From Lophium mytilinum (lineage: Eukaryota): a DNA stretch of 64,000 nt. The DNA is taken from NCBI GenBank assembly GCA_010093605.1, contig MU004192.1, forward strand, positions 1,124,882 through 1,188,881, given 5' to 3'. Below the pieces are notes generated by a model that saw only the letters and a program-made list of their open reading frames with translations, did not search any database and was not told the origin of the DNA. Within the stretch, counting starts at the first letter, position 1; each line of letters opens with the position of its first letter. Below are positions 855 to 61,274 of the stretch, piece after piece. The position numbers were made by a program, and so were the translations under genes.

Positions 855-1345
855 AACACCTCTAACGGTGCGGAGTGAGAGGTTGCCTAGATTTTTATCA
901 ACGCAGTATACTAGGACACAAGTTTGAGCATGTCATCTTCTACAGCTCGTCTCGTTTTATAGTAATAAGCTGAAGCACCACCAACGGCGGTAAGTAGGTC
1001 GACTTTTAGCGTGCGAGACTGCTCTGGTTTAAGCTGTTAAGGACTTTATATCTTCTAAGAATTATTAAGATGCGTTGAAGCACCTCTAACGGTGGTAAGC
1101 GACTCTATATAGACTTGAATTAAGGCACCGTACAAGGTTCGGGCATGCCGTCTTCTACATCTCGTCTCGATTTATAATATTGCGCTGGAACACCACCAAC
1201 GGCGGCAAGTAGGTCGACTGTCAGCGTGCGAAACTGCTCTAGTATAAGCTCTCAAGGGCTCTAGATCTTCTAAAAAACCATTAAGATATCTTAGAGCACC
1301 TCTAACGGTGGTAAGCGACTGTATTTAGACTTTTGGCAAGGCACC
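855..1345. repeat. Degenerate ~216-bp tandem repeat (two ~105-115-bp subunits), each subunit carrying a CACCWCYAACGGYG motif
   Basis: cacctctaacggtg at 857, 1081, 1297; caccaccaacggcgg at 976, 1191; flanks also align (aagtaggtcgact..agcgtgcga.actgctct; gtaagcgact.tat.tagactt). Confidence 0.9.
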
Positions 1346-1439
1346 ATACTGCTCTATCAACACCTACTTGCACCTTTCCACCGCTGCTCGTAATGCTTCA
1401 ATATACTTACAAAAACCCGTTAAGAATCAATCGCACCTC

Positions 1440-2370
1440 TAGTGTGTACACCCATCTACCAGCGTCTGAAGGGCTCTGGCAGGTTATTGGGACTATTAAA
1501 ATGACCGGCTTCTGTTACGATTGAGTGATTCAGGGCACTTCAGACGGTAGTAACCTATCTAGAGCCTGGATTCTTCCATGACTCTGAGTAACAGTATTAC
1601 GCTCTTTACATCTCGTAGCTCTCAAGATTAGAAAGGCCAGGGGGGATATCTAGGCCTATCTCTTTCCTCGGCGATAATAATACAGACCGTCTACTTTAGG
1701 CCTCTACGTAAAAGGTGATTCGGACGTCTACCGTATAAACCCGTATATTAGCGTCTGAGGGGCTATGGCAAGTTATCGGGAATATCAAAAAAACATGTTT
1801 CTGTTTCTCTCGAGCTGTTTGAGGCACTTCAGACGGCGGTGAATGATGGTCCAGCCGCCCACTGTGTACACCCATCTACCAGCGTCTGAGGTGGCGTGGC
1901 AAGTTATCGGGACTATCAAAATAAACGCCTTGCGTTTTCCCCGAGCGGTTTGAGGTACTTCAGACGGCGGTAAAAGACGGTTCAATGGACTATTGTATAC
2001 ACTCATCTACCAGCGTCTAAGCTGGCACGTCAAGTTATTGCGGCTATTAAATAGATATACTTATTATTTCATTAAGTAGGTTGGGGCACTTCAGACGGCG
2101 GTAAAATATAGTTCAGCCGCGCAATACGTATGTATACCTGTGTACCAGCGTCTGAGGTGGCCTGTTAAGGTATTAGCATTGCCAAAATGATAAAATTATA
2201 TTTTTTTTGATAGATTCGAGGCACCTTAAACGGCGGTAACAGACATTTTAACCGTTACTGTGTGCACCTCTCTACCAGCGTCTAAGGTAGCCCGTCAAGC
2301 TATTAGGGTTGCTAAAACGATGCGTTTATGTTTCTATTGAATAGTTTAAGGCACCTTAAACGGCGTTAAG
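1440..2370. repeat. ~131-bp tandem array (about 4.5 units plus a detached unit at 1440-1552), each unit with an inverted motif pair
   Basis: g(c/t)ac(t/c)t(c/t)a(g/a)acggcg near 1823, 1954, 2085, 2220, 2350 (and a variant at 1535); inverse accagcgtct(g/a)ag near 1878, 2009, 2144, 2274 (variants at 1458, 1750). Confidence 0.92.
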
Positions 2371-2704
2371 CTAATAGCAAATCGATATCCTAGTACTACC
2401 GAAACGCAGAGACTGAATATGCGCCAATTCACAGCGCCTATAAATTTACTTCTATCCAGACTATACATAGCTCGTTGAGGCCTGTCAAATAGTGTCAAAT
2501 AGTATGCAAGGCGCATTCAAGACCAGGCCAATTCTCGCATTACAGCACTATGGGGTATAAAGCGGCCCAATTCCCACGCTAGGGAATTCCCATACTCCGG
2601 AGACCATGCTATGCCCGCTATGCCCGCTATGAAACGCCACATCAGGCCCAAAGGCCTATGAAAAATCCTAACCCTCATGCCAGGCCGAAGCCCCCCGTGC
2701 ACCC

Positions 2705-7867: not shown

Positions 7868-8181
7868 TTGGACGATGGCCTGTTTCCCAGGCCGGATGGG
7901 AAGTCTCAATGACCTACTCCATGCAAGATGCTTGAGAGCCTCATATGTGTCGTCGAAAGATCTGTTGGCGGGGGTGGAACAGAGGCACGAGGGGCCAAAC
8001 GATTCATGAAGAGACTCGGCAAAATTGGACAGCGCTATCGCCGCCACGTGACAAATACCGATAACCCAGTCACAGATAAAGCAATTCAGATTATCTAGAT
8101 CATCCGTCAGTCCGAATTCTAGTAGGGGCATATCATTCTCACTCTCGCAAGGGAATAGGCTGGCGGCTCTGTGAGGAGGGT
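7868..8181. repeat. Diverged direct repeat, copy 1 (copy 2 at ~9676-10023)
   Basis: Shared blocks in the same order: tggacgatg, ctgttg.cgggg, tcatgaagagactcggcaaaa (exact at 8004 and 9739), gcgctatcgccgc, gtgacaa.tac, gtcacagata.agcaa, ctagatcatc, gtgaggaggg. Confidence 0.8.
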
Positions 8182-8395: not shown

Positions 8396-8968
8396 TCAGC
8401 TGCGCGCAGCGGCTTTGGCCTTTTCGTCGTCCTTGTCGGCCTCGATCACTTTTCCCGTGATAGTATCCGACCATACCAAGGGGCATTGCTTGTACTCTGG
8501 GTCCGCACTACCTCATGTTTTAGCCAAATGCCTCATAGGGGGGTGCGGCATAGCAACCTACCTGTAACGCCATACGCCCACCTTCCTGAACGCGCCGTGC
8601 TTGCACTTCTTGATCGCATGCTGAAACTCTTTCACACAATCGCTTACCCTCATATTGAACCCATTCTCATTGTTGTCGCTTGCAATAGAGATCTCGAAAA
8701 ACCACGCCTTGTCGGTGTTATCGTTGAATGATGGGTGACCATTTGAAAAGTCGACTTGTGGATAGGTGCGGCACGCAGTTCTGCTTGGTGAAAGTGGGTC
8801 GAAAGTGTCGCTACCCGTAGAGTTGATCATGTGTTCGCAGACGCTGAATAGGCTAGCCACAGCTAGGTCCTGGGCGAAAGCGTGCTCGCCGCTGCCGTAA
8901 CAGCCATGCCCGGCCAGGACGGAGGAGGTGAAGGAAAAGACGAGCACTGGAATTCGGAGGTGCTTCAT
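8396..8968 (-). CDS. Small secreted six-cysteine protein (effector-like; pattern recalls Y3-like glycan-binding proteins)
   Basis: Signal peptide MKHLRIPVLVFSFTSSVLA; GCYGSGE...C...C...DCVKEF...KCKHG...WRY; intron from 8561 (GTAGGT) gives exon 2 SADPEYKQCPLVW...AAARS*. Confidence 0.75.
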
Positions 8969-9675
8969 GTTGACTGGGCAATGCTCACGTATGAAGGATG
9001 ATGTGAGGTCCGAGACTTTGAATCTGATATTGGAGCGAAATGGAAAGGCTCGCAACCCGGGAAGGTCCAGAGCTTTATGCTATGCTCAGGAAATGCACCA
9101 CATTTGCGAAAAGCTACTAGATCTCTTAGAAAAGCCTACTTACGAAGATACCTGTTATAGACGTCGCTTAAATCCCGGAGCTCCAGAACCATATCTGGTG
9201 GGTCGCGTGGACTTAAAATAGATCAGTCGAATCCGTTCCCATCTATTGCAGTTACTGATTGGAAGATACCATTCTATAATGACCGTTTGAGTGGTAAAAA
9301 GAACTGGTACGGCCATCAGTAAGGTAGTTCCCAAGGAATGCAAGTTGCCGCTTGTGACCCAGACACAATGAGTCGGAATCTAGACATCGAGCGGGGTCAA
9401 AAGCTGGTGTAGTATTGTTGATCGTGAGAGAGTGAGCTCATTGCTCCTCTGGGCTATATGAAATACTACAAGTCCCGTGGATGGTAATGTGTCCATGAAA
9501 AGGCTAGAATTAGTCGATCCAGGGTAATTTTATGGTCTCCACCCCGCCACGTCAGCCTGTCACTTGTTCCATGGTTGATATCTTCAAAGACGCAGCCTCA
9601 ATCTATTAACATCGCATTGATGACGTAAAATTGCCACGCAAATCCCCACGCTTTAACTACCGGGATTTCGTGAAG

Positions 9676-10023
9676 TGGACGATGTTCCGTTGAAGGCTCT
9701 ATCGCCTGTTGACGGGGATGTAACAAGGGCCAGACGGCTCATGAAGAGACTCGGCAAAAATTGATGGCGCTATCGCCGCTGTGAGAGCTCGGTATGCAGT
9801 AAGAGAAAATGTATTGTGTTGGGGTTTTGGTGCGGAAGCCAGCAGGCCGTGAGAAGGAAAGATATACAGCTGCTTAGTAAGCGGCTACACGGGGAAAGGG
9901 CCAACACCGCCAGGTGACAAGTACAGACTACCCGGTCACAGATAGAGCAACTCTTCATATTCACTAGATCATCTATCAATTCACTTTTGTTAGGAAGCAA
10001 GCTTAGCAAATCCGTGAGGAGGG
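9676..10023. repeat. Diverged direct repeat, copy 2 (with ~120-bp insertion relative to copy 1)
   Basis: Same blocks as 7868-8181; extra sequence at ~9780-9905. Confidence 0.8.
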
Positions 10024-11667: not shown

Positions 11668-11773
11668 TCTAATGGTGATAGTACTCTTTCTTGTGGATTG
11701 TGTGTCTCTGAAATCAGACGATCAAAGAGCCAATATAGAGTAGATTGAAATGGATAGTAAGCAATTGATCTAT

Positions 11774-12230
11774 GAATTGACAAAGACACGACTTCATATA
11801 TCTTGGAAATGGAAGACACACCAGGCCCGGCCGAGCTTCAAATGATGTGGAACTCCACGACGGAACTCCGCTAGGAAGCATTTCGGGACCGATTGAGCAA
11901 ATGCACGTAAAGACAGATTTGGTGGTACAGGGAACAGGTTCGCGGGGATCTGGTGCGCGTACATGACGGAAGACTATTGGCTACAAGGATACGTCCGTAA
12001 CGCGCGATCCTGTGACTCCCTAGGCATAACGCGCGATCCGGTAACTCACTGGGCTGCATGTTTAGAAATCGACAAAGAAACAACTTTATACTACGTATAT
12101 GTTCGAGAAGGAAGACACAACACGCTCGGCCGAGCCTAAACGACGCGCGCACAGAGTGAAAGACAATTGGATACGAGCATACGTCCGTAACGCGCGATCC
12201 TGTGACTCACTAGTTCTAGGCTGCATATGC
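11774..12230. repeat. Local tandem duplication within the divergent esterase/ketopantoate-reductase promoter
   Basis: gacaaaga..c.act...ggaagacaca..cggccgagc at ~11778-11836 and ~12070-12136; atacgtccgtaacgcgcgatcctgtgactc identical at ~11989 and ~12178; third taacgcgcgatcc at 12027. Confidence 0.8.
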
Positions 12231-13866: not shown

Positions 13867-14889
13867 TCAGTTACCATTGGTGTGAATACCATTGGTGCCG
13901 TTGGTCTTTGTGCCGTTGACACTACCAGCCTTATAACTGACTTCAAAGCTGTAAGCGGGGTCATAATGCATAGCCCAATATCCATCCCAGATCTTGTTCG
14001 TGATGGGGCCGATCTTGCCATCCTTCACCGGCTTCCCATCCAGACTCGTGATAGGCATAATGCCACCAGCCGTCGTACACATAAACAGCTCATCGCACTG
14101 ATACGCAAGCTCCACAGGCACCACCTCGACGCGAACCTCAACACCATTTGCCTTCGCGACATCGATGACACTCTTTCGGGTAACTCCATGGAGCACACCG
14201 CGATCAGGTGTATAGAGAACACCGTCTTTAATAAAGATGATGTTGAAGCCCGACCCCTCGGTGACATTCGCATCGCCATCCGTGAGAAAAGGATACGCAG
14301 CACCACGGTCCCTCGCCTCATGCATTGCTCGAGTCAGATCGCCCCACTGCAGATTCTTAATCGTCGGATCCATCGCCCCAGGTGGGGTACGTCGCACAGT
14401 CCGCGCGATAATGGCGCTGCCTCCCTCAAGCTGCATAGCCGGCTCCATGACCCAGACATAGGGCTGGATGAACATATAGAGGTTGTTCGTAATGTCCTCG
14501 GCCTTGTACTCTCGGACGCCTTTCAGGCCGCGCGTGACTATCAGCTCGACGAAGGCGTCACGGATGCCGCTCTTAGCGAGCATATCGATGAGGATCGATT
14601 TGACCTCTTCCCTTGGGAGCGGGAGCTTTAGGCGCATTTTGGTGCAGCTTGCGGTGAGGCGGTCGAGATGGTCATCGAGGCGGAAGAAACGGCCATCCCA
14701 GACTGATGGCACGTCATAGGTGAGGTCGCTGTGAAGGAAGCCTTGGTCCATAAGGGGGATGCGGGCTTCGGCGAGGGGAGTGAGTTCTCCTGATATCCAG
14801 GCAACTCCGCGGGCGTAGGGATTGCTGCTGCCCTGGAGGACGCCGTCTCGGGAATTGTAGCCTGCGAATGTCTTCTTCATGGTAGTCAT
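13867..14889 (-). CDS. (R)-selective amine transaminase (PLP fold type IV), intronless
   Basis: [51 protein letters not shown] (PLP Lys), TEGSGFN, CTTAGG: nearly colinear with the Aspergillus terreus (R)-ATA as I recall it, and carries the H..Y / FVE / W signature of (R)-ATAs rather than BCAT/DAAT residues. Confidence 0.93.
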
Positions 14890-15731
14890 TGCGAAGTCGA
14901 AATATGGGATTCGTACTGGGTAAGCGTTAACTTTGGACTCGAGCGGTGTATAGAACCACCAAAGTCAAGCATAGACATTCAATTAAAGACTTACAAGTGA
15001 ATTTTAATGGTCAAGTCAGGCTTGCAGTGACTGACTACAATTTTGGAATTGGCTGAAGGCCCAAAATAAGATGTTTGCTATGTCAGAGTTGGGGGGCCGA
15101 CGTTGATATGGCGGTTGGAGATATATTTAAGAAGAGAATGGAGTGTTGAACTTTTAGAGAGGGGTCTTATTTCAAGACTTGTCGTTCCAGCAGGGTCGTT
15201 ATAAAGCATAGCTACCCTAGTGCACAACTAAGTATGCCCCTCTCTGGAAGTTGCTTATCTGGTGGGGTAGAACTCGCCTTCCCGAAAGGGTAATTCCCGA
15301 TCTAGTAATAGAGCCACTGTTGTACAGTAACTCTACCATGGCCTTTGCGTCAATGGCGATCGTGTTCAATCATGATAAGCGTTTATGGCAACTTAACGTA
15401 ATTGGATGAATGAGGATACACACTGAAAGGGGAATTGCTGATAGTTTCGAGGTGGAAACGCGTGCGCGCGTTCCAACAGTCGTGCCCCTCATCTTCGGCT
15501 GCGAATGCCTAGTATGGGCATTCTTAGTGTAGCATTGTGTCAGCGTTCTCGCCCTTCGAAGCTTTCAAGAACACCAAGAGTCGTTCTTCACCAAGAAGAT
15601 TGTCCCACTCGTGTGACTGTGAGGTCTGAACCGGTCGCTGCTACTCTTAAGACCTTGAGACTTGCCCTGGAAGTCGAACTTATTTGGCTTTGTTAGTATT
15701 GTCTTAGCAAAAGACGAAAGTCGGAGTCATC

Positions 15732-17058
15732 ATGGCGCAGAAGAATATTGTTGTGATAGGGTAAGTACAACGCGCAAACCCTAAATTTTCAATTGACTTA
15801 CACAGATTGTCCGCAGAGCTGGAGTCGCAGGATTGACGACAGCATTGCTGTTGTCGAAACATCCCCAATACCGGATCGTAGTAGCTGCCAAACATATGCC
15901 TGGCGACTATGATATCGAATATGCATCACCCTGGGCGGGAGCAAATTACATGCCGTAAGTATGACTGGTCATCCATGAGGTCTTTCAAGGGACAAGCCAT
16001 TTGACAAAGGTTGCGTTTAGTGTTTCGGTTCGTGGTACTGAGGCTGCAGAGTGGGATAAGAACACATGGCCTCCCCTAGAAGATCTAGCACGGAACCACC
16101 CTGAGGCTGGCGTGCACTTTCAAGGTACGTCCAGATATACACTACCTTTTCCTGTATTAAAGATTGCTGACTAGATTAAAGAATGCGAGATCTTCAGTCG
16201 TTCCAAGGACATTGGTTCTGCAACAGCAGATTGGTTTGCTGAGTTACTGTCTCCGAACCCATGGTTCAAGGACGTTGTGCCGAATGTGAGCTGTCCCCTG
16301 GCTGTTCAGACATCATGCCCATACTCATTCGTCTCTCCTAGTTCCGTTCGCTTCCCAAGGAAACTCTGAGCCCTGAAATCGATTCTGCAACAGCTTTCAC
16401 CTCTGTTTGCATTAACACGGCCATATACCTTCCCTGGCTGGTCTCACAGTGTCTCAAAAACGGTGTTACCTTCAAACGTGCCGTATTTAAGCACATCTCC
16501 GAAGCGTCCTTGCCCGGAATCCACCCCTCAAGCAAGGCTGATCTCGTGGTCAATTGCACCGGCCTCATGGCAAGCACGCTTGGCGGCGTTGAGGACAAGT
16601 CCGTTATTCCCGCCCGAGGGCAGATTGTGGTCGTCCGCAATGTTGCTGACAGGATGGCTGATGTGTCCGGCACCGACGATGGAGATGGCGAGGCATGCTA
16701 TGTCATGACAAGAGCCGCAGGCGGCGGCACGATCCTGGGCGGGTCCTACCAGAAAGGCAATTGGGAGTCCCAGGTCGATCCTAATCTGGCCATTAGGATC
16801 ATGAAGAGAGCAGTGAAGCTGTGTCCTGAGCTGACAGGAGGAAGAGGAATCGAACACCTTGACATCATCAGACACGGTGTTGGATTGAGACCTGTTCGAC
16901 AAGGCGGAACGAGAATCGAAAAGGAGCGCATAGACAAAGTATTGGTGGTACACAACTATGGCGCCGGTGGGGCCGGATACCAGTCTTCGTACGGATGCGC
17001 GCAGGCTGCTGTAGCCTTGATAGAGGAAGCACTTTCGTCAACACGCGCTCGTTTGTAG
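15732..17058 (+). CDS. DAO1: D-amino-acid oxidase (FAD), 4 introns, C-terminal PTS1 (-ARL)
   Basis: Spliced MAQKNIVVIG|AGVAGLTTA...DIEYASPWAGAN; VVNCTGL, PARGQ, GVGLRPVR, HNYGAGGAGYQSSYGCA. Confidence 0.92.
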
Positions 17059-17577
17059 AGGCCGTAAACAAAAACTACACGCGTCGAGAATATCCCTCTT
17101 CCAGACTTGGTGGATGCGCAATGGAGCTTCCGATTTCCGCTTGATGGTTGGGAGCTTTGAGGAATTTGAAAATACCACTTCTCGGCGATATACTATCACG
17201 CTTGAGATGAAAAGAACAGAGACATCGATGCCATGAGTTTGTACCCCAAATTATGACGCAGCTTAGTCACAGTTCCCCATCGATGAAGCTAACCGTAGTT
17301 CGCTTGGTGCAAGATCCTCTTTGCTTATCGGTGAAATCGTGCAACTCCCTCTCCAACATCCACCCCGATGCTTCATCCTCTCATCCTTCCATTATTTCTC
17401 CCATCTCAATCCGCCAAATGCAAATCAGCTAGCGGCATAGAGCATGGGGTGACATAGCCTCCCGCGTCTTCCGCCGCTCTTTTCAACACTAGGCACGAAA
17501 CGAGACTCTGCATATGCTGTAACTCTAATCTACACCCACCACCTCGTAAGCAGAGGGCCCAACGTTTCTCGCCTCAA

Positions 17578-19821: not shown

Positions 19822-20179
19822 AAGGAAGCTGGAGATATTCTCGTATGACTTTGGAAGAATTCGTTCGGCACACGGATATCCCGCTGTCTGCTTACCACTC
19901 TTGAATCCTGGACGATGACACGACACTGACGGATGATGAGTTGAACCTAAATGGGTATAGCTATACCACGGGAGCGCGAATCATGCAGAACGGAATGGTT
20001 ATGGATGGGATTCTGTGCACAGGCTGGGAGGAGTCCGGCTGCTAATGCGGGCATTCACCGGCCTAAATACCCCTTCTCCTTTCTTTTCCTTCTTTCTGTG
20101 GATACTCGGAAGTTCCCGAATGTTATCGTAGTATAGCAGCATAACCACAAGAATAACTAATAAATCTCAAGTTTGTATC

Positions 20180-20700
20180 GTTGGTACCTCGCAACGATGG
20201 CGTCTGAGGTTTCTCGAGCTATTTTCTAATTTCCCAAAACAGTGAATTTTCAGTCCTTTCAGGTGTCTGATACCACTTCGAAGCACTTCAGACAGTACCA
20301 ACCCGGGCTACATACGAATAAAGGCGTGCTCAACTGTGCCATGCTGAATCCAGCACAGAGCTTGCAGAGGATCTTCCAAATGGTACCTCCTCAGAAGCAT
20401 GTGGACACTTTTGCAAAGCGACGTCTGAGGTGGCCCAGCTGGTTCACTGACTGTTCAAGAAGATCTGATCTCTCCTGTTCTAACTTGATGAACGTATTTT
20501 GAAGGACAACATGCAGTGGTGAAGCGGTCTACACAGCTTTTCAGCGCAAGGCAAGCCCCCCCGCCCCCCAACGCCATCACTTGGTATCCAAGTGTGCACC
20601 CTGCTATTACTCAAGAACATGCTCAAACTCCAACAGAACAGATTTTACACCGCATCCCGATTTTCCAAAGGCTACGGAGACACCTCAAGCAGTGTCATAA
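20180..20700. repeat. Cluster of the same dispersed motif (inverted pair plus singles)
   Basis: gcgtctgaggtt at ~20200, gcacttcagacag at 20283, cgtctgaggtggccc at ~20422, cacctcaagcagtg at ~20681; cores match the 1440-2370 array. Confidence 0.75.
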
Positions 20701-20867
20701 GAGTGTGCACAGACTTCCCAGCAAAAACACCATCTTCGATGTCATCTCATAGCACTCATGCAGATAACAAATATTCAGAACTCCGCTTACAATTCTCAGC
20801 ACCACAAGAGCCTACGAAATCACACTACTAAACAACAAATGTTTCCACCCATCAAAGCCCTTCCCCA

Positions 20868-22700: not shown

Positions 22701-23761
22701 TGTTGAGTGGTATTGAGTGATTGGGAGTAAGGCGTTGAGTTGGTATTGTCAACCAAGTGGAGAAGGCAAGTTGAGCTATGCGAGGGAAAACAATGGCAAC
22801 ATGACCTGTATAGATATAGGAATACAAGTGGCTTGGATGGGGGTGCTCTATCATGGAGGACGCACGCTATGTCCAGATATCAGCTTGCGGGTGATCTTAG
22901 ATAGAGCAGCATTGTATGGCTCGGCGGGCCTTAGCATGATAACACGGTTTCTACATCGGGGATTCATCCCAGTGCCATCCTCGTGGCTTTGCACCACGGA
23001 TAGCTATCATTGTGGTGCGCTGCGAGGGCGCTTTGTGCACGGATAAGTCATGGGTAAGTCCTGGGGAAGACGAAGTGTGGAGAAAAATTTACCCGATGCG
23101 GCAGGCGAGATAAGACCGCCCGTCGGGAGTCACGTGTTGATGCATGATCCGCAAGGTCAAGAATCTAATCTCGGATACTCAAATAGGTAGATCGGGTCGT
23201 CAGCAAGCTAATCCTGTAGTAGGGTCTTGCGAGTATGGTCCGCAATCTGAGCCCAACTATCTGTGAGCTGATGGCAGGCGGGTGGAAATTGCCACGATAG
23301 GATGCAATAAGGCTGAAATCAACACAACCCCATTGGACGTATCGAAAAGGGGTCAAGCGAGACCGGTGTGCTGGGAAACCTTAGGGTGTTCCCAGCTGTG
23401 ACATCTGAAAAGCACCATCTTTTAGCATGGGTTCCTAACGATTGCAATCATCATCGGCATCATTCGGAGCGGACTGCCAGGCTCCGGATGGCCAAGAATA
23501 CGTGGGGAGTATCTCATCACGCCTGCGTATTTGTACTCTCGTGTATTTTGATAACTTAACGCCACGTGTTCAAGATGAAGATAATATATGACTTTCCGGC
23601 GGTCTGATTAGCATAGAGGAGTGCATTAGTGCTCGCTCTCTGTAAGGCTTTCATCTGAAATTTAGATATGAAAATTACCCGTGATGAAGTAAGTAACTGG
23701 CCGAGCCACGTGAAATTCGTACGTTCTATATACAAGGTAGCGTTATTGCGAGAACATGTCG

Positions 23762-33133: not shown

Positions 33134-33449
33134 GATTTCAGAGGTAACTTGGGTATAGGCGGGTGGTATAAATCCAGTGTAATCGAGGGATGGAAAGTCG
33201 AGGTGATGAGGGGTGAGGGTGGAGTCGGTTGAGACGGGTCAAGATCGAAGCTTTGACCACGGCGATAAGGACGCAGGACAATGCCGACATCAAGGTACCC
33301 ACGCAGGGCAAGAAACAAGTGGCACACCCAGCTAGCATTCTGCCATTTATACACCTGTGTGCCTGTCTGCCGCCATTTATGGTCCTTTAATGCATTGTTA
33401 CAGCTATAGTTAAGATAGCAACCCTTAGATTTAGGCTATATAGAAACTT

Positions 33450-33700
33450 TCCGAGGCACTCTATACAGTGGGAAATAGGTGCACTAACCTACTTGGTACT
33501 CTAAAACAGCATAGGAGCATAAAATAATATTCTATAAATCTGTAAGATATGCGTATTACTTTTATATTTATATACGCTTGTATAGCACCGTCTAGGGTCC
33601 TCTGGTATCCTATTGCTATCTATAGAACGGCAGCTTTGGCAAGCCTAATAGCTCTCCGGGCCGCCTCAGACGGTGTTGAACTGCTGGAGTGTGCCACTTT
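33450..33700. repeat. Cluster of the dispersed motif in TA-rich intergenic DNA
   Basis: ggcactctatacagtgg at ~33455; inverted pair gcaccgtctagggtcc (33585) / ccgcctcagacggtg (33661). Confidence 0.65.
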
Positions 33701-33988
33701 TTTCCTGCCTAGCGTGGTACCTACCTCGGAGTGCTTTCTCCATCATCAACACCAGCAGGTCCAGTAGAGATGCACAATCTGAAACCTGTCAACTCCGCAA
33801 ATGGAAATGTCATAGCTGTAGCATATGATTTAGTAGCAAAACGAGCTCACTGAACGGAAAGTATTTCGTTGTGGTTTGTTACGCATTGCTTTCGTGCTCT
33901 CCCTCATGCATATCAGTTGCGATGTAATGATCATTGGCCACCAGAACCACCCTCAAGACGCCCTCACCTTCCCAATAAAAGCACCCTC

Positions 33989-40098: not shown

Positions 40099-42248
40099 TA
40101 TGTAAGTCCTGTCGTCGGACTAGAAGTTGGGGTCAAACTCCCTCAGTCATATCGCAAACTATTCCTTTTGGCGCGTGTGGCGCGTCAGTGACGATTTCTC
40201 GCGTTTCTACCACCAGCCTATGTCGGCCACTACCACGGACACGCGGAGAAGACCCTTAAGTTGCATATACTGATTCATTACGACGGATGTCTGATCCAAA
40301 GGACATACAAATTCTCTAAGATCCCGATGTTGTTTGCATTTGTTCAAGTATTTATATCTATATTCATTATAATTTACCCGCAGTTTCTACAGCTGATGAT
40401 TTCTCAACACTGACTTCACATCCTTTGATTAGCTAGTTCCAAAAGATCCCCAGCACGAAATACGTCAAATGACCCGGTCGCTTCCGCCCTCATGACCACG
40501 GACACATGGATCCAAATACATCTCGCTTTCAGATTCGCCAGCAGAATAAAGAACACGCCACCACGTCTCTAAGCTTCTTCCACACCCCTCATCTGACCGA
40601 CACCTGCGTAAGCCCAGCCTTGTCGAACCCCTGTGCCCTCTCCGCCGTCCAGTGCAGCGCACCGAGCAATCGCACTCGCAATTCGGTCCATTTCAGCAAA
40701 AATCGAAGATGTGACCATCTGCGAGAACATCGATAGTTGCCCAGCGATATTCTAGTGAGGACGGTCGAAGCTGAACAAGTGTAGTGCTACTTCATCCACG
40801 GTCACATCAGTGAGGACGCGCTTGATGGTGCTATCTGGCTATTCTGAGACGTGCCAATCCCGCGAACCCGGAACCAACATAATCCGCTGGCGGCGAGCGA
40901 TGTGAGATAACTTTGGTGACAAGTACAGCGAGGCCAGGTGATGATATATTACGCGTACAACAATCGAGCCGTCAAGCCAACAGGGTGAATAGGAGCCTTA
41001 GTGGTGAAGGTAGGTTAGTGCTTGTCACAGCCAAGCTTGACCGTTAGCTAATCAAATTCGAATTTACAACATAGAGCGGCATGAAAGTTGAAGTGATGTT
41101 CCCGTTGGTCTTCCCTGTTGCGGCCTGGTGAAGCACGTCAATTCCCCATTCGTATCCATGTGCGGAGCTTTCGAAGAAGACCTTTCAGAGAACCAGAGGG
41201 AGAGGCTCTGTACTTGAACCTTGCCGGCTATCGTCCGCAACCAGCAGATGACCGCAGATGGCGCTGGAGACTGTTGAAGGGTAGAGGCAGAGGACAGCGC
41301 AGTCTTGCTAAGGCTATTTCATTTCACGACTAGACCGAAGGAGGTTATCAAAGAACTGCAGTCGACTTGAAGATTTCCCAATACCTGAGGAGCGCAGGAT
41401 AAGGAATGGGACCATCACTTACTGGACACATGGGTTGTTGTCGCTGGAGAAAAGTTAATCACCAATTGTGGTCTAGAAAAAGGATAGAGAGAGTGGAAAT
41501 ACTTACTGCTTATAGAAGCGCTGGCTAAGGCAGCGGCTTGGAAGCCCAAAAGTAGACAGTCGAATGCTCTTCGATATAAGTGCACTCTCGACTACATTTG
41601 TCTGTAACGCTTCGATGTATCTATGGAGTCCGCATGTGCACTGTCTCGATCGTGCTTAACAATATATTCTACGGAGACGCCTAGCCGCGTCAGACAGCGT
41701 TATGCTGCAAGCTGCGAATACAACGATGAATGCAAGAAGCCCGTAAAATACACATTCCTACCAAGGGGTCCAGAGCTGGTGTTGGCGGGATGGGAGGCGA
41801 GGAGGGGTGCCTGGCCGGATTAACTCGGACCGACGCGCCCAGGGTCTTGGTTGGTGGCGGGCAGCTGGTGGCAGCGTGGATGACAATGACTTGAGAGAAG
41901 GCTCTCGAAGACATCACTCCCTTTTGCTCTTGGTTTGTTTCCTCCACGCAGCGTCGACGTTTTCGACGCGAGGGCCGCATAGGCTCTGCTTCTTCGGCTT
42001 TGCATGTCTCGTCCTTGAGGCTCAACTTCATTGCCATTCTCGGCCCGGCAGCTCTACAGCACTACCTACATTTACGGTGGATATTGTTCAACTGCTCTAC
42101 TTTCCCTGATTCTTCATCACCGCCACGAGCTTGCCCAATATTCAGGGCGTTCCGGGGATCAACCTGCAGCTCCAACCACTCGGTACATCTCGTAATAAGA
42201 CAGCTATCCTGCCTGCGAACTCAAACTAACACCACTCTCTAGTCCAGC

Positions 42249-45200: not shown

Positions 45201-45997
45201 ACGAATCAGGATATCGCGCGACGCTCAATGATCTCCGTGACCTGGACGAGGAACTCTATGATGGACTTGTAAGTTACAGCCCTATTCTAATGTAGGAAGA
45301 TGACTAACCTGCTGTGCAGCACCAACTTAAGAACTACGACGGGGATGTTGAAGACTTCTCTCTCAACTTTACCGTAACAGATACCATCCGGAGGGCCGAC
45401 GATCGCGGCGGTACGAAAACTGTTACGAGGGAACTGAAGCCCGATGGCTCCAACATACCCGTCACAAATCGTAATCGCCTGGTTTACATATCATACGTGG
45501 CCCGTCATCGCCTTCAGAACGAACCTGCGATGCAAACAAACGCCTTCCTTCGTGGTCTCTCGACCATGATAAATCCGGCGTGGCTCAGCATGTTCAATCA
45601 CAGCGAGTTACAGACCCTAGTCGGCGGTACCTCGTCTTCCATCGACGTGGACGATCTTCGTCGCAACACAATCTACGGAGGCGTCTATCAGCGAGGTGAT
45701 GATAGTCGTGATCATCCAACCATCGATCTTTTCTGGCGTGTCATGGAACAGTTCAACGACGGAGAACGTCGTGCCGTACTGAAGTTTGTCACCTCAACCC
45801 CACGATCACCTCTGTTAGGATTCGGCACACTCCGTCCACCGTTCAGTATCCGAGACGCGGGTGGCGACGAAGAGAGGCTGCCGAGCGCGAGTACCTGCGT
45901 CAACCTCTTGAAGCTCCCCATCTACAAGGACGAGAATGTGCTCAAAGAGAAACTTCTCTACTCGGTGTTCTCTGGGGCCGGATTCGACTTGTCATAG
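42249..45997 (+). CDS. HUL5: IQ-motif HECT E3 ubiquitin ligase (Hul5/UBE3C-like), 2 introns
   Basis: AARLLQRAWRGH (IQ), LEILQNMPFLIPFTTRVQIFREF, EAGIDGGGVTKEF, LKFVTSTPRSPLLGF, LPSASTCVNLLKLP, GAGFDLS*. Confidence 0.92.
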
Positions 45998-46414
45998 ACA
46001 GTCAACATTTGCACGCAACGAACAGGGACGGTGACACGATGCGGCGTTACTAAGGCCGCTTATAGACTAATTAAGCCCTGGAAAGCGTGTTACTTGGTCA
46101 ATCCAAGTTGTACATTTTGGCGTGGAATTATGATGCTTTTGGCACCAGGGCTAGTGGAAAGTTGGCCACTTGTTTGGCTTTTTCCTGAAATGGTTGCGCT
46201 ACAGCCCGTAGGTACTAGGTTGCTGTACAGCATCAGCCGTACATTGTAGGTAGCAAAAATGATCCAGGATATTTTCTTGGTCATGAATGTGTCTTCTTCT
46301 CGTGTATTGCTCTGGTAAAGTGATACCTCAGTCTGTGTACGATTTGCTGCTATTGTCAAGGGGGGTGCTGGAGATTTCAATTACGGTGTCCTGTTAAAGG
46401 TTTGTGCCAGCCGT

Positions 46415-46700
46415 TCACCGCTGCTTGGGGTACTCCTATCGGGCTCTCAAATTGAGATCACGATGTCAAAGCCAGTACAACAGAACTCAGACTACCTCAT
46501 GAATGGTCAGCTCTGTGCTGGCTGGGCTACTCCTTACAGTGGTGTCCAGCGAGCAAGAGCATACCCATGTAGGGCTTTGATGCATCCCAGGACAATCCAA
46601 TGGTTGGTGCAGTAGAAATCAGGCTACCACTTGACTGCCAGGCTGCATGCTAGCTAGGTACCTCTTACAGTGGTGTATAGCAAGCAAGATCGGGGCCCGA
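46415..46700. repeat. Dispersed-motif cluster with a 131-bp-spaced direct repeat
   Basis: accgctgcttggggtac (46417, reverse); tgctggctgggctactccttacagtggtgtccagcgagcaaga and tgctagctaggtacctcttacagtggtgtatagcaagcaaga (ttacagtggtgt at 46534 and 46665). Confidence 0.75.
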
Positions 46701-47149
46701 ACAGTGTAAATCCGGGTCTCCAATACTATAACCTCGTACAGTATGCTTGTAGACACCCGCACAAAGCGGAAGCTTAGGATTTTAATTTACCGGTAGAAGA
46801 GGAAGATTTCACATGAGCTTCTAACGAAGTGCCGGCTCTTTTGTCAGATTTGTTGGAAGATACCACAATCCTACATTCACCTACATTAACGTCACTTGCG
46901 ATGGCAATTTTCACGCCTCTTAGCGAGCAGATGGTCGCCTAATTACCTGTCTATAAGAGGGAGCAGCTCACATGACTTTGCTGGCTCAACTACTTAAACT
47001 TAAAATCTGGTTCAACCACCCACCTTCACCCGTGGACCTCAACCGAACCACCTGTCCTCCGCCTCCACCACCACAACATCCTCCATCAACACAACCTCCA
47101 ACATCACATCTTGTACCCGCAACGTGTCGCCGCGAGGCCACTCAACGGC

Positions 47150-48739
47150 ATGAAGGCTTTCATCAAGGCAATGCGAGCCCTGCCTCGGGGCCGCGCCGTG
47201 CATGACCGGCTGCTGAAGCCCGCCGCGTCCCCGCAACACTGTGACATCGAGCGCCAGGTGCTCAAGGCCAAGAACGACGAGCTGGAGAGTGTGCTTGAGG
47301 TGATCAAGTCGGACATCAAAGCGCTACAGCGAAAGCACGATGCTCTGGACGATGACTACACGAAGCTCATCTTCAAGCATACCGCATCCAAAGCTGTGCG
47401 TGACCATCTCAAAGTCTCAAAAGAACATTTGGAGCGTGAGCTTGGGGCGGCAAAGGACTACATCAAGACACTCCAGTCTATCTACGATGCACTTGATGCT
47501 GAATATACGAAAGTCAAGACTCAGCTGGAGATATCGAACGCTAAGATCGAGACTCTCAACTCAACGTTGTCGGCGAAGAATGGCCAGATCCAGTACCTCA
47601 TCGGGCAGTATGACAGACAGTATGTCTCGGCAGCCGAGAAGTTTCTCGCTGAGAAGGGCTTTGTGCAAGGAGCATTGCAGGGTCTTCAGTCTCGGTTCTC
47701 CCCAGGCCAAGTTCTCCTTGATGCACATATCAATCGGATGTCCGCTTTTCGCTTGATGAAATTACCCGGAGAGCTTCGCAATCGCATCTACGAGTTCGCG
47801 CTTGTGCTCGGCCATCCTGTCGACCTTTGGCCTATCAACGGGTTCGCTCTCGGCCTGTCCAACTTGGTATCAAAGCCTCCCATCAAGAGCCGCGATGAAA
47901 TCCTCCAGAAAGACCTCGCGAACATCAACATCGCCTTGCTACGTGTCTCGAAGCAAGTGTACAAGGAAACTGTTGGGATGCTATATGGCCACAACACCTT
48001 TCAGTTTTCGGGCCACGAAGCATTCGTTCCAATGACAGCATTCCTCCGGCACATCGGCTCTGGGTGCAACTTTATCACATCAATATCAATTGAATGCCCC
48101 AGAGACTCCTTTCAAACTGTCAATCGTTCATGGAAGCTGGACGAGGATAAGAACGAGTTCATGCAGGAAAAAGAATCTGCTCTGGACGCGTTCTACAGGC
48201 GGCTTAGAGTGTCTGGATACTACTCTGTCATAGGACATCCTCACGAGAGCTTCGTGGTTGGGGAAGGAGAACGAATCCTTGGCAGACTGCCAGCCCTCAG
48301 ATCTTTCACGATGCTCGTTCCTCATGCCATGGCAATACGATCTTCCTCATACTTGGTCAGAGAGAACGTCAACCGTAGAGTCGATATGCTGCGCTGGGAA
48401 GCCGATGCGCAGACGAAGCAGTTCGCAGCAGCCACAGCAGCAGGCACCCAAGTAGAGAAGTCTGTGGTTTTCATCAGGCGACACGAGACGCAGCCAAAGA
48501 TTTACAAGGATGTTTGGGACAAGGTTACCGACCTTGATGACGAGAAACAGATGGGCTGGGAGGACTTCAAGAAGGTGAAAGAGCACTATGGCTGGAAGAT
48601 TGAGCACGCGTCGTACACCATGCAACCGGATGGCCCTGCCTTCATTGTCGACAAGCCCAAGCCTCTGCGTGTGGAGCAGGCTCACCAAGTCGAGTCAGAT
48701 AAGGACGATGAACCGTTCCCACTCGATTATGTCGCTTGA
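47150..48739 (+). CDS. Intronless hypothetical protein: N-terminal coiled coil followed by an F-box-like domain
   Basis: Heptad-rich ~150 aa; FRLMKLPGELRNRIYEFAL...ALLRVSKQVYKETVGMLYGHNTFQF, typical of fungal F-box-like families; first ATG at 47150. Confidence 0.75.
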   Translation: MKAFIKAMRALPRGRAVHDRLLKPAASPQHCDIERQVLKAKNDELESVLEVIKSDIKALQRKHDALDDDYTKLIFKHTASKAVRDHLKVSKEHLERELGAAKDYIKTLQSIYDALDAEYTKVKTQLEISNAKIETLNSTLSAKNGQIQYLIGQYDRQYVSAAEKFLAEKGFVQGALQGLQSRFSPGQVLLDAHINRMSAFRLMKLPGELRNRIYEFALVLGHPVDLWPINGFALGLSNLVSKPPIKSRDEILQKDLANINIALLRVSKQVYKETVGMLYGHNTFQFSGHEAFVPMTAFLRHIGSGCNFITSISIECPRDSFQTVNRSWKLDEDKNEFMQEKESALDAFYRRLRVSGYYSVIGHPHESFVVGEGERILGRLPALRSFTMLVPHAMAIRSSSYLVRENVNRRVDMLRWEADAQTKQFAAATAAGTQVEKSVVFIRRHETQPKIYKDVWDKVTDLDDEKQMGWEDFKKVKEHYGWKIEHASYTMQPDGPAFIVDKPKPLRVEQAHQVESDKDDEPFPLDYVA

Positions 48740-49324
48740 AACTGCAGGCAGCGTAGCGATGGGTGGACATGGGGGCTATGTAGCGTCACGACGAGTAGGC
48801 TAATACCTACTACCCCTTGCGGGCAATAAACTCGTAGTTGAAACAAATGCAGAAGAAGAGCCGTAAACGTGACCGCTGACCTATGTGACTAACGTTGAGG
48901 TACCTTAAACACTACTATATGTCACGACGCGTATTCATTGAGTGATAATGTGTGGCCTGCACTGTACCTTAGGAGACGTGGAGGATCACGACGTGTGTTC
49001 CTTTAGTGAGAACTTGCGACCCGCAGCGTGTTTTAGTGGACGTGGAGGTCACTACTTCTACCACTTGTTCCGGTTTAAATGGCGGAGTTTTCGGTTCTAC
49101 TTCCTGATGATCCAGTTGTTTCCCACGCGGCGTGACCATATTTGAACGACGTGTTCGGGTCTAATGTAGCTTTTTAACACCTTACGTTGTTCATAAGAAT
49201 GTACTCTATGGAGAGTTGGCCGACCTTTTGCACAAGTTGCAGAAGCAAGACCAATAGTTAATGTATGAAGCGACTAATAGTAGATTTTACTCTTGAGCCA
49301 TGACTATAGGATGCACCTTTAATA

Positions 49325-49930
49325 AGGGGCAAGTAGACAGATCGTTTGATATCCGGCTCGCACTGTTTGAGGTGCCCTAATGCATGAAACCAGAATATGA
49401 TGTCAAATGCTTAAGACCGTGAATTGCACCTACTCTATTAATATTACTTCTAAGCTAATACTATGTGGCAAAGGTTTAAAGGGGTCTAGTAGACGGTAGG
49501 TTTGAACTTCGTTCAGCGCTGTTCGAGGTAGCCTGATGCTTGATAGGAAACCAAATTACAATGTCAAAATTTCAAGACCGTGAATTGAACCTACGTTATC
49601 AGTGTCACTGGCGAGCCATTACCATGTGATGGAGCTACAATATAGGTCTAGTAAACGGTATATTTGTACTTCGTTCAGCACTCTTTGAGGTGCCCTAACG
49701 CATGATACCAATCCAGAATATAATTTCAAATGCTCAAGACCGTGAATTGCACCTACGTTATTAGTGTCACCCGTGAGCCATCATTATCTGATGAAGCTTC
49801 GAACACGGGCCAGTAGATAGTGTATTTGAACTTCATCTACCACTGTTTGAGGTGCCCTGATGCATGATGTGAAACCAGAACACAATGTCAAATGCTCTGG
49901 ACCGTGATTTGCACCTGCATTACCAGTGTC
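49325..49930. repeat. ~162-bp tandem array, 4 units, carrying the dispersed motif
   Basis: cactgtttgaggtgccc or close variants at 49361, 49517, 49679, 49841; gaccgtga(a/t)ttg at 49415, 49576, 49738, 49900. Confidence 0.92.
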
Positions 49931-50044
49931 TGTATTCCGAGGCCTAGCACAACGCTAGTGTGCAACACAGTGAATTACACAAACGAATGAGCAATTTGGC
50001 TACGCTCGTATCGCAGATCACGGACCCTTACGCAAATCCATAGC

Positions 50045-50450
50045 TACAGTACTAGGCCATACGTTTGGACACACGAATAGATATGACTGCTTTAGTGCCG
50101 CCTTTGCAGGCTGGATACCACTGTCAGGGGCAGCCCCATTGCGAGGATACCTCTCAGTCAATAGGAAGATAAGATTACACCTCTTAAACTTGACTCGACG
50201 CCTGAATTGTGCTCCGTCCATACTGTAGGGGCACTCCTGACAGCGGTAAACGAGTGCCCAAATTGATGACCATAGATATACAATACTAGGCCATGTGTTT
50301 GGGCACACGGATGTCACTTCTTGAGTGTCGCTTTCGCACGCTGGACGGCACTGTCAGGGGCGGTCCCAATGTGAGGATATTTTTTGGTCAATAGGAAGCT
50401 CAAATTGCACTACTTATCCCACGGGGGCACCCCTATCAGTGGCAAACGAG
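50045..50450. repeat. ~230-bp tandem duplication with inverted motif pairs
   Basis: tactaggccat..gtttgg.cacacg at 50050 and 50284; cactgtcagggg at 50119 and 50349; gtcaataggaag at 50157 and 50387; gggcactcctgacagcgg (~50229), gggcacccctatcagtgg (~50425). Confidence 0.85.
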
Positions 50451-50925
50451 GTGCACGGAGTTGTGGTCGGAGATCGATGTCGGCGTCCCGAGTCCCAGGC
50501 CGATGTTGTTCCTCCGAACCTCGGGTGGGCCGGCACTATTCCGAGTCTACCTAGGCACTCTCCAACCAGGCCTGGCCCTGGATGCATGACCGGACTACCT
50601 ACACAGTCACAGGTCTCGTGGCGGCTTGTTTTTCTACCTAACACGCGGAGGCGCCTTCTACCAGCGGTATGTCTACATAGCACTCGGAAGCCGCCCGGCG
50701 TCCCGCGCGGATCCGCACACCTTCCCTCAGTCATTAGGGTCATTCTTCTGTCCCGAGACGCCGACAACGGCGGGGTTTTCTTCATCGTTGCTTCCGCTTA
50801 CAAACTTATTGACCAACACTTGCTAAGTGTCGTCAACACAGCGTCTTCTACAGTTCACACTTAGATCAAGACGAGGCTTTATATGCCGAAGACCGTAACT
50901 AGCCAGTCCTCGTGCTCACGTCTCA

Positions 50926-51770
50926 ATGCCTGGATCAACGAACGGGACTGCCTCTGCGGCGGCGCAGAATGGCGTCAACAGCAACACGATTAACAGTCTC
51001 CTCAATTCCAGCAATGGCAATGGCACCGCTACAGTCTCCCACCACGCATTCGACTCTATAGAAGACACCATCGCCGCATTCGGTTTGGCTGCCTCCCCCA
51101 ATCCACCATTAACAAACACTGACTCCTCAAAGCGCGCGACGATTTCGTGGTTGTCCTCGACTCACCCTCCCGAGAGAACGAAGGCGACCTGATCATCGCT
51201 GCGTCTGCCCTCACGCCCGCCAAAATGGCTTTCATGATCCGCTACACATCCGGCTACATCTGCGCCCCCCTCTCTGTTACCCGCGCCGCTGCGCTGCATC
51301 TCCCGCAGATGGTAGAGAACAGCACCGACCCAAATCGCACCGCGTATACCGTGTCGGTGGATGCGATAGGGCCGGAGATGAGCACGGGCATCAGTGCGTC
51401 AGATCGCGCCCAGACGTGCCGCATGCTAGCAGACCCCAACATGAGCCACACCAACTTCCGGAGACCGGGTCACATACTGCCCCTGCAGGCGCGAGATGGT
51501 GGCGTAAGAGTGCGGAGGGGACACACGGAGGCGGCGGTGGAACTTTGCAGACTGGCGGGAAAGCAGCAGGTTGGGGCGATTTGCGAGCTGATCTCGGACG
51601 GCGAGGTGGTTGCTGGCACGCCGGAGATGGTCGGTGGGGGGATGATGCGGACGGAGGAGTGCTTGGCCTTTGGCAGGAAATGGGGACTCAAGGTTTGCAC
51701 TATCGAGGATCTAGTGACGTATATCGAGAAGACTGAGGGTAAGCTTGGCGTGGAGGGCAGTGACTACTAA
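50926..51770 (+). CDS. RIB3: 3,4-dihydroxy-2-butanone 4-phosphate synthase, 1 intron
   Basis: FDSIEDTIAAF|..FVVVLDSPSRENEGDLI, TAYTVSVDA, TGISASDRA, FRRPGHILPL, RRGHTEAAVELCRLAG. Confidence 0.96.
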
Positions 51771-52499
51771 GTTTTGCTGCGACGTACTAACCCACTTTTC
51801 TTTCCAAGCTTTGTCTTCTTTCTGTTATAGGTTCGATGGACAGTGGAGGACTTTTACCACTCGGGATCTTGCATGGACGTTGACGGGAGTGGGAATGACG
51901 GGCCATGGTCACTAGATCACTGCAGTGGGCAGGGTCAGTTTGTTTCACACCACTCTTCGGTTCGACACTCCTCGAGGAGCACTGGATCACTGCAGCGGAC
52001 AGACTCGGTTTCTTTCACACCTTTTCTTGGTTCGACACTTCTTAAGAGCATCGTCGGTCTAGATGGATGCTGCGGAAGCGGCAAACTTGCATGGTATCTT
52101 GGAGAACCGGCGTTTCGGGGGCATGCCGCTGTTAGGGTGGCTACAAAAGTAGTCCACTTTGAAGACTACACTCCATTACAGTCTAGAATCAGTTGCATGC
52201 TCGCATGCAAACACTATACACACCAATCAAGTGAATCTTTGGTTACAAAGAGGCATTGCGATATCTCATATGAGCATCAAATTCTCTTCCTCTCCTTCCG
52301 AGGTATTTGTATAACAGTTTTGCGATATCACGTGGACCACAATTTATCGATAGTCCCGCGCCAAGACAATCGCGGGGCAGGGGGCTAAAAACATTGCTGG
52401 TGATGGATGAGTCGACAAACGCACTCCCAGCGGGGTTCATAAATTCAAACAACAGTCACAACAGCACCGTACCGTCTCACCTCTACAAACAACACTATC

Positions 52500-59235: not shown

Positions 59236-60070
59236 ATGGTGTTTCCTCAGGGTGAGTTTGGCCTCTCCTTCATCATCCCCATCATCGAGTGCGCATCCAG
59301 CGCTGGGGACATTGCATCGTATGAGAAGATTTGCAAGATCCTCCGCCAATCCAGATGCGCAATCCCCGAGGCTCTAGCAAAGCAATGCCCCAGGAGGCCC
59401 CCGGTTCACACTTGGCAAGGACAGGCTGACCTGGGATTCTCACCTGATTTTAGACGCGCTTGACCGAGTTGTTGCCGGCAATAGGACATACGCAAAGAAG
59501 ACGGCCGAGCGGGACCCCGAATTTTTCAAGACCCTAGCTACTGGCCAGAGCCCCGAGATTCTTTGGATTGGCTGTGCCGACAGTCGCGTTCCCGAAACAA
59601 CCATCTGCGACTGTCAGCCTGGCGACATCTTCGTCCACCGCAACATCGCCAACTGTCTCCACGCCCAGGACCTCAATGCCTCCAGTGTCATCGAGTATGC
59701 CACTACCCACCTGAAGGTCAAAAAGATCGTCGTCTGCGGCCATACCATGTGCGGAGGTGCGAATGCTGCGCTAGGGGACGCCGACTTGGGCGAAGCGCTC
59801 AACACATGGCTACTACCCATAAGAGAGCTACGGCGGAAGAACAAAGCAGTTCTAGACAAGCTGCCTAGTGACGATGCCCGAGGCAACAAGTTGGCCGAAC
59901 TCAACGTGCAGCAGTCTCTCGAAGTTCTCCGACAAATACCAACCGTAAGCAAGGCCATAAGGGACCGCGGCCTTTCTCTCCACGGCTTGATATACGATAT
60001 CGCAGCGGGGGAGTTGGTGGCCCTAGAAGAGACCAAGAAGGGCAATGGTCTATGGAGTGCTTCTGCTTAG
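59236..60070 (+). CDS. NCE103: Beta-class carbonic anhydrase, 1 intron (~59252-59453)
   Basis: MVFPQ|DALDRVVAGN...GQSPEILWIGCADSRVPE...GDIFVHRNIAN...VVCGHTMCGG...ELNVQQS...HGLIYDI. Confidence 0.92.
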
Positions 60071-61257
60071 GTGGGTTAGGTTACGGCGTAAAAGCGTTGT
60101 TGGCTAGTATCATATTGGTGGAGTTTGGTCTTTCAAAGTCACGCGGGCTTGGCGAATAGTCTCGCCCCCAAGGTTTAGGGGTCACTCTCAAGGTCACGTT
60201 TATTTGTTCTGGAGTCATCGATACTCGGACTTTTCTCGCTTTTTCGCATCCTTGAGTTTTGTCGTGCTAGTGACTCTCGCACGCGGATCTAGATGCCTTC
60301 ATGATAAGCGATGACGAAATGCTACCAGAGTTTTGACCAACCATCAGGTATTTAAAGACATGTTTTTCAGCATTTACTTCTTCAAATATCACTCAAAACA
60401 TCCGTCAATTCCATTGTATCAGACTCCAAATCCCATCATCAGCCTGAACGAGTTACGCTAGTCTCAAACAATCTCAAGGATCCTACAACAACGTTTAAGA
60501 TGGTTCCAACAACCTATAACCCGAAGTCCCAACAATCAAGCCAACCCAAGTGGGCATCTGAACGCGAGTTCTTCCTTGGAGGCACAGTAATCGGAGACGA
60601 ACTACCGTTCGAACGACCACCCCTTAAAGAGCCAATACGTCTCACAGACTCCTCAGCCTCCTCTAGAAAGTCTAGTTTAGTCTCCTCAAAATCATAGAGA
60701 CTACTGAAGGGTGTAATGTTAGTCCTTGCTAGGTACGTCCTCGAAAATATCGATGCACGCTGTTTGATCCTATCCACAACGGACAAATAGCAACCTCCTC
60801 GAGCAATAGGCCGTACTTGGTGCATATAAATGACTGCTGACACCTTGAAGATCTAGTCCAGAATTTTGAAGCATGACCGGCGGCAGTCCGTCAATTGGGA
60901 CGGCAACATTCATAACACCGGGTGGTATCCCACCCAATATGACGATAATACTTGGCTTCTTGTCACAGTCCCCCGTAGTCGACTTTAATACGCTACTTCG
61001 CGACCGCCACCGTTCCACCTTGGCATATGGATACCGCTTTCGCAGCCAATGAGCGGTTTATTCCAGAATTTGGAAAGGTTATTTGATTCTCGCCTGATCG
61101 ACTCCGCGTTCCGCTTGTAATCCGGGCATTGCCGTCAAATCATACATAGTTGTATAGGTTTATACTGACTTGTTATTTGTCCCTCTATGCACAAGGTCTA
61201 GACTGTATTTGTCTAGATTGTCACCTCGTCGTGTACCCACAGGTACCCCTAGTCAGA

Positions 61258-61274
61258 ATACCTCAAGCAGCGGT
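61258..61274 (+). repeat. Single copy of the dispersed motif
   Basis: tacctcaagcagcggt matches the reverse complement of 46417-46432 (taccccaagcagcggt) at 15/16. Confidence 0.5.

Follow-up and report, generated by a model that had tools for sequence, protein, structure and literature searches.

The DNA analysed here is a 64,000-nt stretch of the Lophium mytilinum genome (positions 1,124,882 to 1,188,881 of contig MU004192.1; hereafter 'the window'). It is gene-dense ascomycete (Dothideomycete) DNA with ~23 genes, among them one for a DHBP synthase 100% identical to a protein listed by NCBI under L. mytilinum, and its intergenic spacers harbour clusters of repeats that contain variants of an 18-bp motif of consensus GGCACCTCARACRGYGGT. 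The clusters occupy ~6% of the window. Many of the motif copies form two-arm units, i.e. a reverse copy, a spacer and a forward copy. The clusters, the single motifs and the ends of one well-delimited element, D, are listed below.

Motif-bearing clusters of the window

693..1350, + strand: array A, ~108-bp monomers in 216-bp dimers; forward motifs at 855, 974, 1079, 1189 and 1295, and a weaker one at 751
1418..2385: array B, six 131-bp two-arm units in the same orientation (reverse, then forward motif, 58 nt apart), with starts at 1458, 1747, 1878, 2009, 2144 and 2274, unit 1 being followed by ~160 nt of other DNA
20180..20710: cluster C, two-arm units 20198/20282 and 20417/20503, and a forward motif at 20679
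33295..33299, + strand: left target-site duplication (TSD) of element D, GTACC
33300..33716: element D, 417 bp, non-coding, with 28-bp imperfect terminal inverted repeats (TIRs) at 33300-33327 and 33689-33716, and internal two-arm units 33369 (weak)/33455 and 33584/33660
33717..33721, + strand: right TSD of element D, GTACC
41684..41701, + strand: single motif J, in a divergent intergenic spacer
46384..46741: element E (ends tentative), TA-flanked, with motifs at 46417 (-), 46526 (+) and 46657 (+) and an internal duplication of ~131 bp
48899..48964, + strand: single motif I, and next to it a CAGT-type end flanked by TA
49284..49930, - strand: array F, four 162-bp units with one reverse motif each, at 49359, 49515, 49677 and 49839
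50047..50460: cluster G, two tandem two-arm units of ~230 bp, 50117/50230 and 50347/50426; unit 1 is TA-flanked, starts with CAGT and has ~30-bp degenerate TIRs
61257..61274, + strand: single motif H, with a weaker motif at 61541

The 18-bp motif is a real feature. Each site was scored with a matrix built without its own cluster and without the adjacent one, against a background of ~120,000 positions. All 38 sites have p<=1.2e-3 and 33 of them p<=2.5e-5, which supports the recurring intergenic motif proposed in the initial annotation of this DNA. Two of the 38, at 41684 (p=2.5e-5) and 48899, were absent from that annotation. Matrix scores above 12 occur at 37 sites within the 3,960 bp of clusters and at three in the other 60,040 bp, a count to be read in the light of the fact that three of the cluster ranges had been drawn around matches already seen. 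The consensus given initially yields 3, 6, 14, 19 and 34 matches in the window at 0, 1, 2, 3 and 4 mismatches, respectively. Its short core has 18 matches, 14 of them inside clusters, and picks up 14 of the 38 sites. Among these matrix-picked sites, positions 5 and 12 each have a C in 37 cases, and C3 and C8 show nine and seven C>T changes, respectively.

Reverse-spacer-forward pairs, with spacers of 56-95 nt, account for 24 of the 38 sites, two of the pairs having a weak left arm. The 108-bp array (A) contains forward copies only and the 162-bp array (F) reverse copies only, and a search for degenerate partner arms in these two arrays found none above background except for one borderline case. 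Hence, the paired layout described initially applies to the 24 sites and not to the single-orientation arrays, while the repeat periods of 108/216, 131, 162 and 230 bp were borne out. A literature search, mostly of the main texts of open-access articles, yielded no description of the motif or of the repeat family. The paired-arm pattern matched metagenome contigs three times, about the number estimated for chance, and is uninformative on relatives; the three contigs are ORF-dense and bacterial-looking (GC 0.56-0.72), with no second arm according to the matrix.

We compared the conservation of the motif with that of the rest of the units. In array A, the values are 0.83 for the motif and 0.49 for the rest across monomers, and 0.94 and 0.79 in dimers (p=0.017). 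In array B, the arms score 0.81 against 0.58 for the rest (p<1e-4), and columns with transversions number 4 of 36 in the arms against 41 of 94 elsewhere (p=0.0004). Since the excess in array B holds at both GC and AT columns as well as for transversions, neither repeat-induced point mutation (RIP) nor composition explains it. There is no motif excess in cluster G (0.78 vs 0.78), and it is not significant in array F (0.81 vs 0.72, p=0.13) or in E (p=0.11). The retained binding site suggested in the initial annotation thus has support in the 108- and 131-bp arrays and none in G, where the motif is no better conserved than the spacers. As for array B, either it was duplicated inside still-mobile elements or serially inserted from them, or the host selects the motif. 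Multimers have been described for miniature inverted-repeat transposable elements, or MITEs (PMC5172404).

Element D and its copies

Element D has CAC...GTG ends within its TIRs (16 of 20 terminal matches, z 7.3) and is flanked on both sides by the perfect 5-bp TSD GTACC. It is the sole combination of CAC..GTG ends, a 5-bp TSD and TIRs in the window, and 20 Markov shuffles gave none. The initial statement that the clusters lack shared element ends is therefore wrong for 33300-33716. The two internal two-arm modules of D are homologous to each other (z 4.7).

The contigs of public sequencing runs were compared with positions 33001-51500. One run (X1) is genomic, may itself be where the window comes from, and was used only for other loci; three others (X3 to X5) were treated as RNA solely because of spliced GT..AG joints. 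In the genome run, 72 contigs overlap position 33663 with a G>A change that restores the motif consensus. Their summed depth is 24,403, compared with ~160 for single-copy DNA (~150x, which is not a true copy number). Judging from these contigs, the relatives of D in the genome may number from dozens to about 10^2. Seventeen contigs exit the window sequence behind 33716 into unlike flanks (agreement 0.42), and those that exit before 33631 share a related interior (agreement 0.7-0.79). A complete, diverged copy (33299-33710) is found in a contig of 9.9 kb, and another contig, 359 nt long and with twice the depth of single-copy DNA, begins exactly at 33300, with five differences. The summed depth falls to 1,289-1,789 in the interior of D, at 33624-33630, from its value at the arm; thus, among dispersed copies, the arm has been preserved better than the interior. 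The D arm is also present in the relative or relatives represented by X4 and X5, which differ by ~1-4% in HECT coding pieces, and X3 has 38 RNA-type contigs at 33663.

Other TSDs were considered for D. A TA duplication was rejected, as the contig boundaries fall at 33300 and 33716. The window by itself would allow a 3-bp duplication (TAC; 33299-33717), with which the loose contig ends behind 33716 disagree.

D is short and non-coding, has TIRs and a TSD, and is present in many dispersed copies with common boundaries, as are MITEs. On the basis of its ends, which are Transib-like, we provisionally treat it as a fungal MITE of no established class, and not as a Transib.

Other clusters and their genomic setting

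Like D, segments of E (46521-46558) and G (50065-50180) are multi-copy in the contigs of the genome run. Contig joints (33683>33637, 50363>50120 and 50180>50418) show that tandem and single-unit forms exist elsewhere. Unit 1 of G starts with TA|CAGT and ends at TA, and its left and right TIRs resemble each other (z 3.9-4.6). The right outer arm of E is homologous to the left arms of G (z 5.1-5.6), the left and right ends of E itself match at p=0.05 only, and the end next to site I resembles that of G (z 4.2). A search for TSDs found none for A, B, C, F and H; a TA adjoins G, E and I. In unit 1 of G, in E and in I, the TA comes with CAGT-like but degenerate ends, and D does not fit the TA format of Tc1/mariner elements. 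The fallback proposal of the initial annotation, decayed MITE-type repeats, is favoured by the TIRs and TSD of D and by the multiple copies of D, E and G, and for these three clusters the motif matches are accounted for by transposon ends.

The surrounding units largely differ between clusters, as had been noted, and the motif is the main feature that they share, but the interiors of some distant units are homologous. Array B and D are related in this way (z 6.6-6.9), and the interior of the C unit at 20417 is homologous to the reversed E unit at 46417 (z 6.2-6.8). The interiors of array B agree at 0.50-0.76 among themselves and at 0.36-0.50 with D. Across clusters, flank similarity is ~2-3x the chance level (of 675 pairs, 14 against 7 and 19 against 7), with a null slightly inflated by overlapping draws. 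Array A has a RIP-like dinucleotide index.

The window also contains a RIP-wrecked 1.3-kb element (38763-40100; GC ~0.3) with TA|CAGT inverted ends. A frame on its minus strand has weak matches to transposase helix-turn-helix domains (E 0.008 and 0.027), and a less mutated copy is present in X3. It is probably a Tc1-like relic, with no clear motif inside. Beside it, at 40063-41009, a 947-nt X3 contig has no open reading frame of 120 aa and may correspond to a non-coding or unannotated transcript.

We next considered the positions of the clusters relative to genes. Motifs occupy six intergenic spacers, four between tandem genes and two between convergent genes, and four of the six lie equally 5' of a gene. 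With approximated gene models, the 3' bias has p=0.17 if spacers are counted and 0.10 if length is used, and the site at 41684 is in a divergent spacer. The placement described initially as always 3' of a gene is thus not a significant bias; it is what the gene layout gives. Similarly, the gaps between clusters (18.9, 13.1, 13.0, 3.1 and 11.7 kb), given initially as roughly 11-19 kb for the main sites, are not significantly regular (p=0.07, or 0.12 with 41684). A value of p=0.006 is obtained only by merging E with F/G and omitting 41684, which is a post-hoc choice. With both proxies not significant, nothing points to the insulator, cohesin or replication origin functions that had been envisaged.

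Cluster E (46.4-46.7 kb) is crossed by a spliced RNA-type contig with the window's own sequence (X3, 41928-48849). This speaks weakly against a hard roadblock to transcription at that place, as a contig is not a transcript. In the relative, HECT contigs end at 46214 and 46244, short of cluster E, which is compatible with a roadblock or with none. The missing cover at 49043-49659 in X3 and in the E-G spacers in X4 and X5 is no evidence in either direction.

The same X3 contig connects the HECT ligase gene to a DUF7730 gene, the latter without cover in the relatives (X4 and X5). At 37870-38052, a splice-like joint in X3 and X5 upstream of a homeodomain/C2H2 gene suggests a short upstream exon. 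Repeats devoid of the motif are also found in the window. Direct repeats at 7992-8109 and 9727-9978, 77-87% identical, flank a small gene for a predicted secreted protein (8558-9079; no Pfam match), and short intergenic direct repeats are present at 11791-12213, 48922-49048 and 51910-52042 (periods of 190/299, 64 and 70 bp, respectively). A coding tandem repeat of 36 bp (63460-63700; FGQQP-like) is part of an unannotated open reading frame. Finally, adjoining genes at 13867-22748 code for a class IV transaminase, a D-amino-acid oxidase, a fungal transcription factor and an amino-acid permease.

Origin of the motif and comparison with known systems

The motif is probably a subterminal cis-element, located just inside the TIR, of an old and diversified family of non-autonomous cut-and-paste transposons of the MITE kind, which has been locally arrayed. 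The basic module would be two inverted motif copies around a spacer of 58-95 nt. A transposase acting in trans would bind the TIRs and the inner motifs, giving a synaptic complex where the ends are paired and cut. The motif would be kept as long as the elements are mobile while the interiors drift freely, leaving one motif within unlike units. Modules may have been duplicated inside elements, D holding two of them and E an extra arm, or beside elements to give the 108-, 131-, 162- and 230-bp arrays, later eroded in part by RIP. All the clusters, including arrays A, B and F, would then have a common origin. There are precedents for these steps: a MITE transposase binds subterminal repeats (PMC1636448), fungal MITEs can have common ends with unlike interiors (PMC3227409), and the TnpA sites of En/Spm are bound subterminally (PMC2613891).

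Several observations weigh against the MITE origin. No transposase could be linked to the family; the end of the window's Tc1-like relic shows weak similarity (z 2.7), and the relic has one marginal motif match (score 10.0). A systematic search of the window for TIRs with TSDs gave convincing ends for D only, those of E remaining at p=0.05. The copy-number data cover 33001-51500; outside that range, homology is what places A, B, C and H in the family, and beyond the motif itself the links of A, F, H and J are weak. The motif is unlike the TIR itself (best matrix scores in the TIRs, -3 to -12), and it is found inside two end types, CAC with a 5-bp TSD and TA with CAGT, whose 28-bp TIRs align weakly (p 0.01 and 0.05). 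Nor did an empty orthologous site turn up, the spliced contigs of the relatives (X4 and X5) not spanning these spacers. In addition, the motif outlasts the spacers in A and B, which would not be expected of copies that decayed neutrally after duplication. A known kind of repeat thus accounts for most of the feature, and two puzzles are left, the constraint inside arrays and the presence of the motif across end types.

Both puzzles would fit a site bound by a host protein, perhaps exapted from a MITE, with present selection keeping the motif while the spacers drift. The better conservation of the motif in A and B, the near-invariant C at positions 5 and 12 compared with the C>T changes at C3 and C8, the ~6% of a gene-dense window taken up by the clusters and the occurrence of the motif within two end types all agree with such selection. 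However, the lack of excess in G, the non-significant differences in F and E and the absence of significant 3' bias or regular spacing do not, an RNA-type contig bridges cluster E, and selection at the level of the element accounts for the conservation of arm over interior in dispersed copies. We therefore consider present host selection unlikely. A related proposal, in our view also quite unlikely, is that the 18-bp site is the target of a single DNA-binding protein, either encoded by the host or of domesticated transposon origin. The module would be carried by transposons of differing cutting chemistry (TA/Tc1-like and CAC/5-bp Transib-like), expanded in arrays and still under selection. If true, it would amount to a genome-wide binding platform spread by transposons, with a cluster about every 8-10 kb in gene-rich fungal DNA.

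Improbable, too, is that the two-arm module is a non-autonomous Helitron2/Helentron of the HINE type, the motif being its subterminal inverted repeat (subTIR). The arrays would then have arisen by rolling-circle replication or self-insertion, and D would be a MITE that captured two modules. By its form, the motif pair could be a HINE subTIR pair. HINE families have near-identical subTIRs of 12-15 bp despite <70% identity, which may be palindromic, and no TSD (PMC4067079), and fungal Helitron2 elements have asymmetric inverted repeats (PMC5148889). The units of A, B and F have no TSD and form same-orientation tandems, and the right-type arms can pair weakly with themselves (2.6 of 6 pairs, against 1.5). 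In contrast, a stem-loop beyond the arms is not enriched (6/27 vs 31% in the background), and the arm hairpin has no covariation (p 0.07-0.21). A scan of clusters other than D gave one hairpin-CTRR configuration nearby (2371), the match at H being a slicing artefact. D has a TSD, and the ends of G and E look like TA-flanked TIRs. Very improbable, finally, are structured RNAs or terminator-like hairpins in 3' untranslated regions, similar to repetitive extragenic palindromes and kept for pairing between arms. The arms can pair, and copies of the family are frequent in RNA-type contigs, such as the 38 at 33663 in X3. Nevertheless, folding z values range from -2.3 to +1.0, with 1 of 11 below -2, the window has no Rfam match at the gathering score, 14 of the 38 sites are unpaired, and the complementarity of an arm to its own partner is 11.5 of 18 positions, compared with 10.2 across clusters.

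If a MITE family is the correct interpretation, its closest counterparts are described in fungi. The EFT MITEs of Epichloe are short, non-coding TIR elements with high copy numbers, 49-90% identity and many deleted copies, and their EFT-27mA/B subfamilies have common ends with unlike interiors (PMC3227409); among the characters listed there, none is a common inner motif of 18 bp, a tandem array of several units or an end type with a 5-bp TSD. The ~230-bp unit of G, with its ~28-bp TIR and TA, recalls the mimp elements of Fusarium (200-220 bp, ~27-bp TIRs; PMC3599309). No parent element was identified for the present family. For L. mytilinum itself, PMC12910237 reports two past expansions of transposable elements, in passages that do not use the term MITE. 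As MITEs, these repeats are of modest importance: they are uncatalogued, take up ~6% of a gene-rich window and enter transcripts.

The subterminal position of the motif has parallels in other transposons. The Emigrant MITE has direct and inverted subterminal motifs inside its TIRs, which the pogo-like transposase of Lemi1 binds; however, in Emigrant and Sleeping Beauty, the subterminal repeat is the inner half of the TIR (PMC1636448), whereas our motif is no TIR copy. Another parallel is the TnpA sites of CACTA/En-Spm elements, with CAC...GTG ends and a repeated subterminal motif unrelated to the TIR (PMC2613891), but the TSD of EnSpm is 3 bp rather than the 5 bp of D, and no coding partner of D was seen. 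HINE/DINE-1 and Helitron2 elements share a conserved subterminal inverted repeat across unlike families and tandem internal repeats (PMC4067079, PMC5148889), but here there is no enriched 3' stem-loop and D has a TSD.

D fits the broad description of the CMCT clade, with CA..TG ends and a 2-5 bp TSD (PMC12730594), and its CAC start and 5-bp TSD are those of Transib (PMC1131882). Compared with the description of Transib in the same source, D is devoid of a nonamer like that of recombination signal sequences at a 12- or 23-bp spacer, with AA at nonamer positions 5-6; its ends have an A-run at positions 13-19, and the nonamer slots of the right end read GTGGCACAC and CAGCAGTTC. No RAG1-like transposase was found in the window. 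D thus displays the Transib signature, CAC...GTG with a 5-bp duplication, in a kingdom reported to be free of Transib (PMC5751038). Moreover, an inner motif common to both end types that outlasts its spacers in two arrays offers a concrete test of the exaptation of transposon-borne binding sites in fungi.

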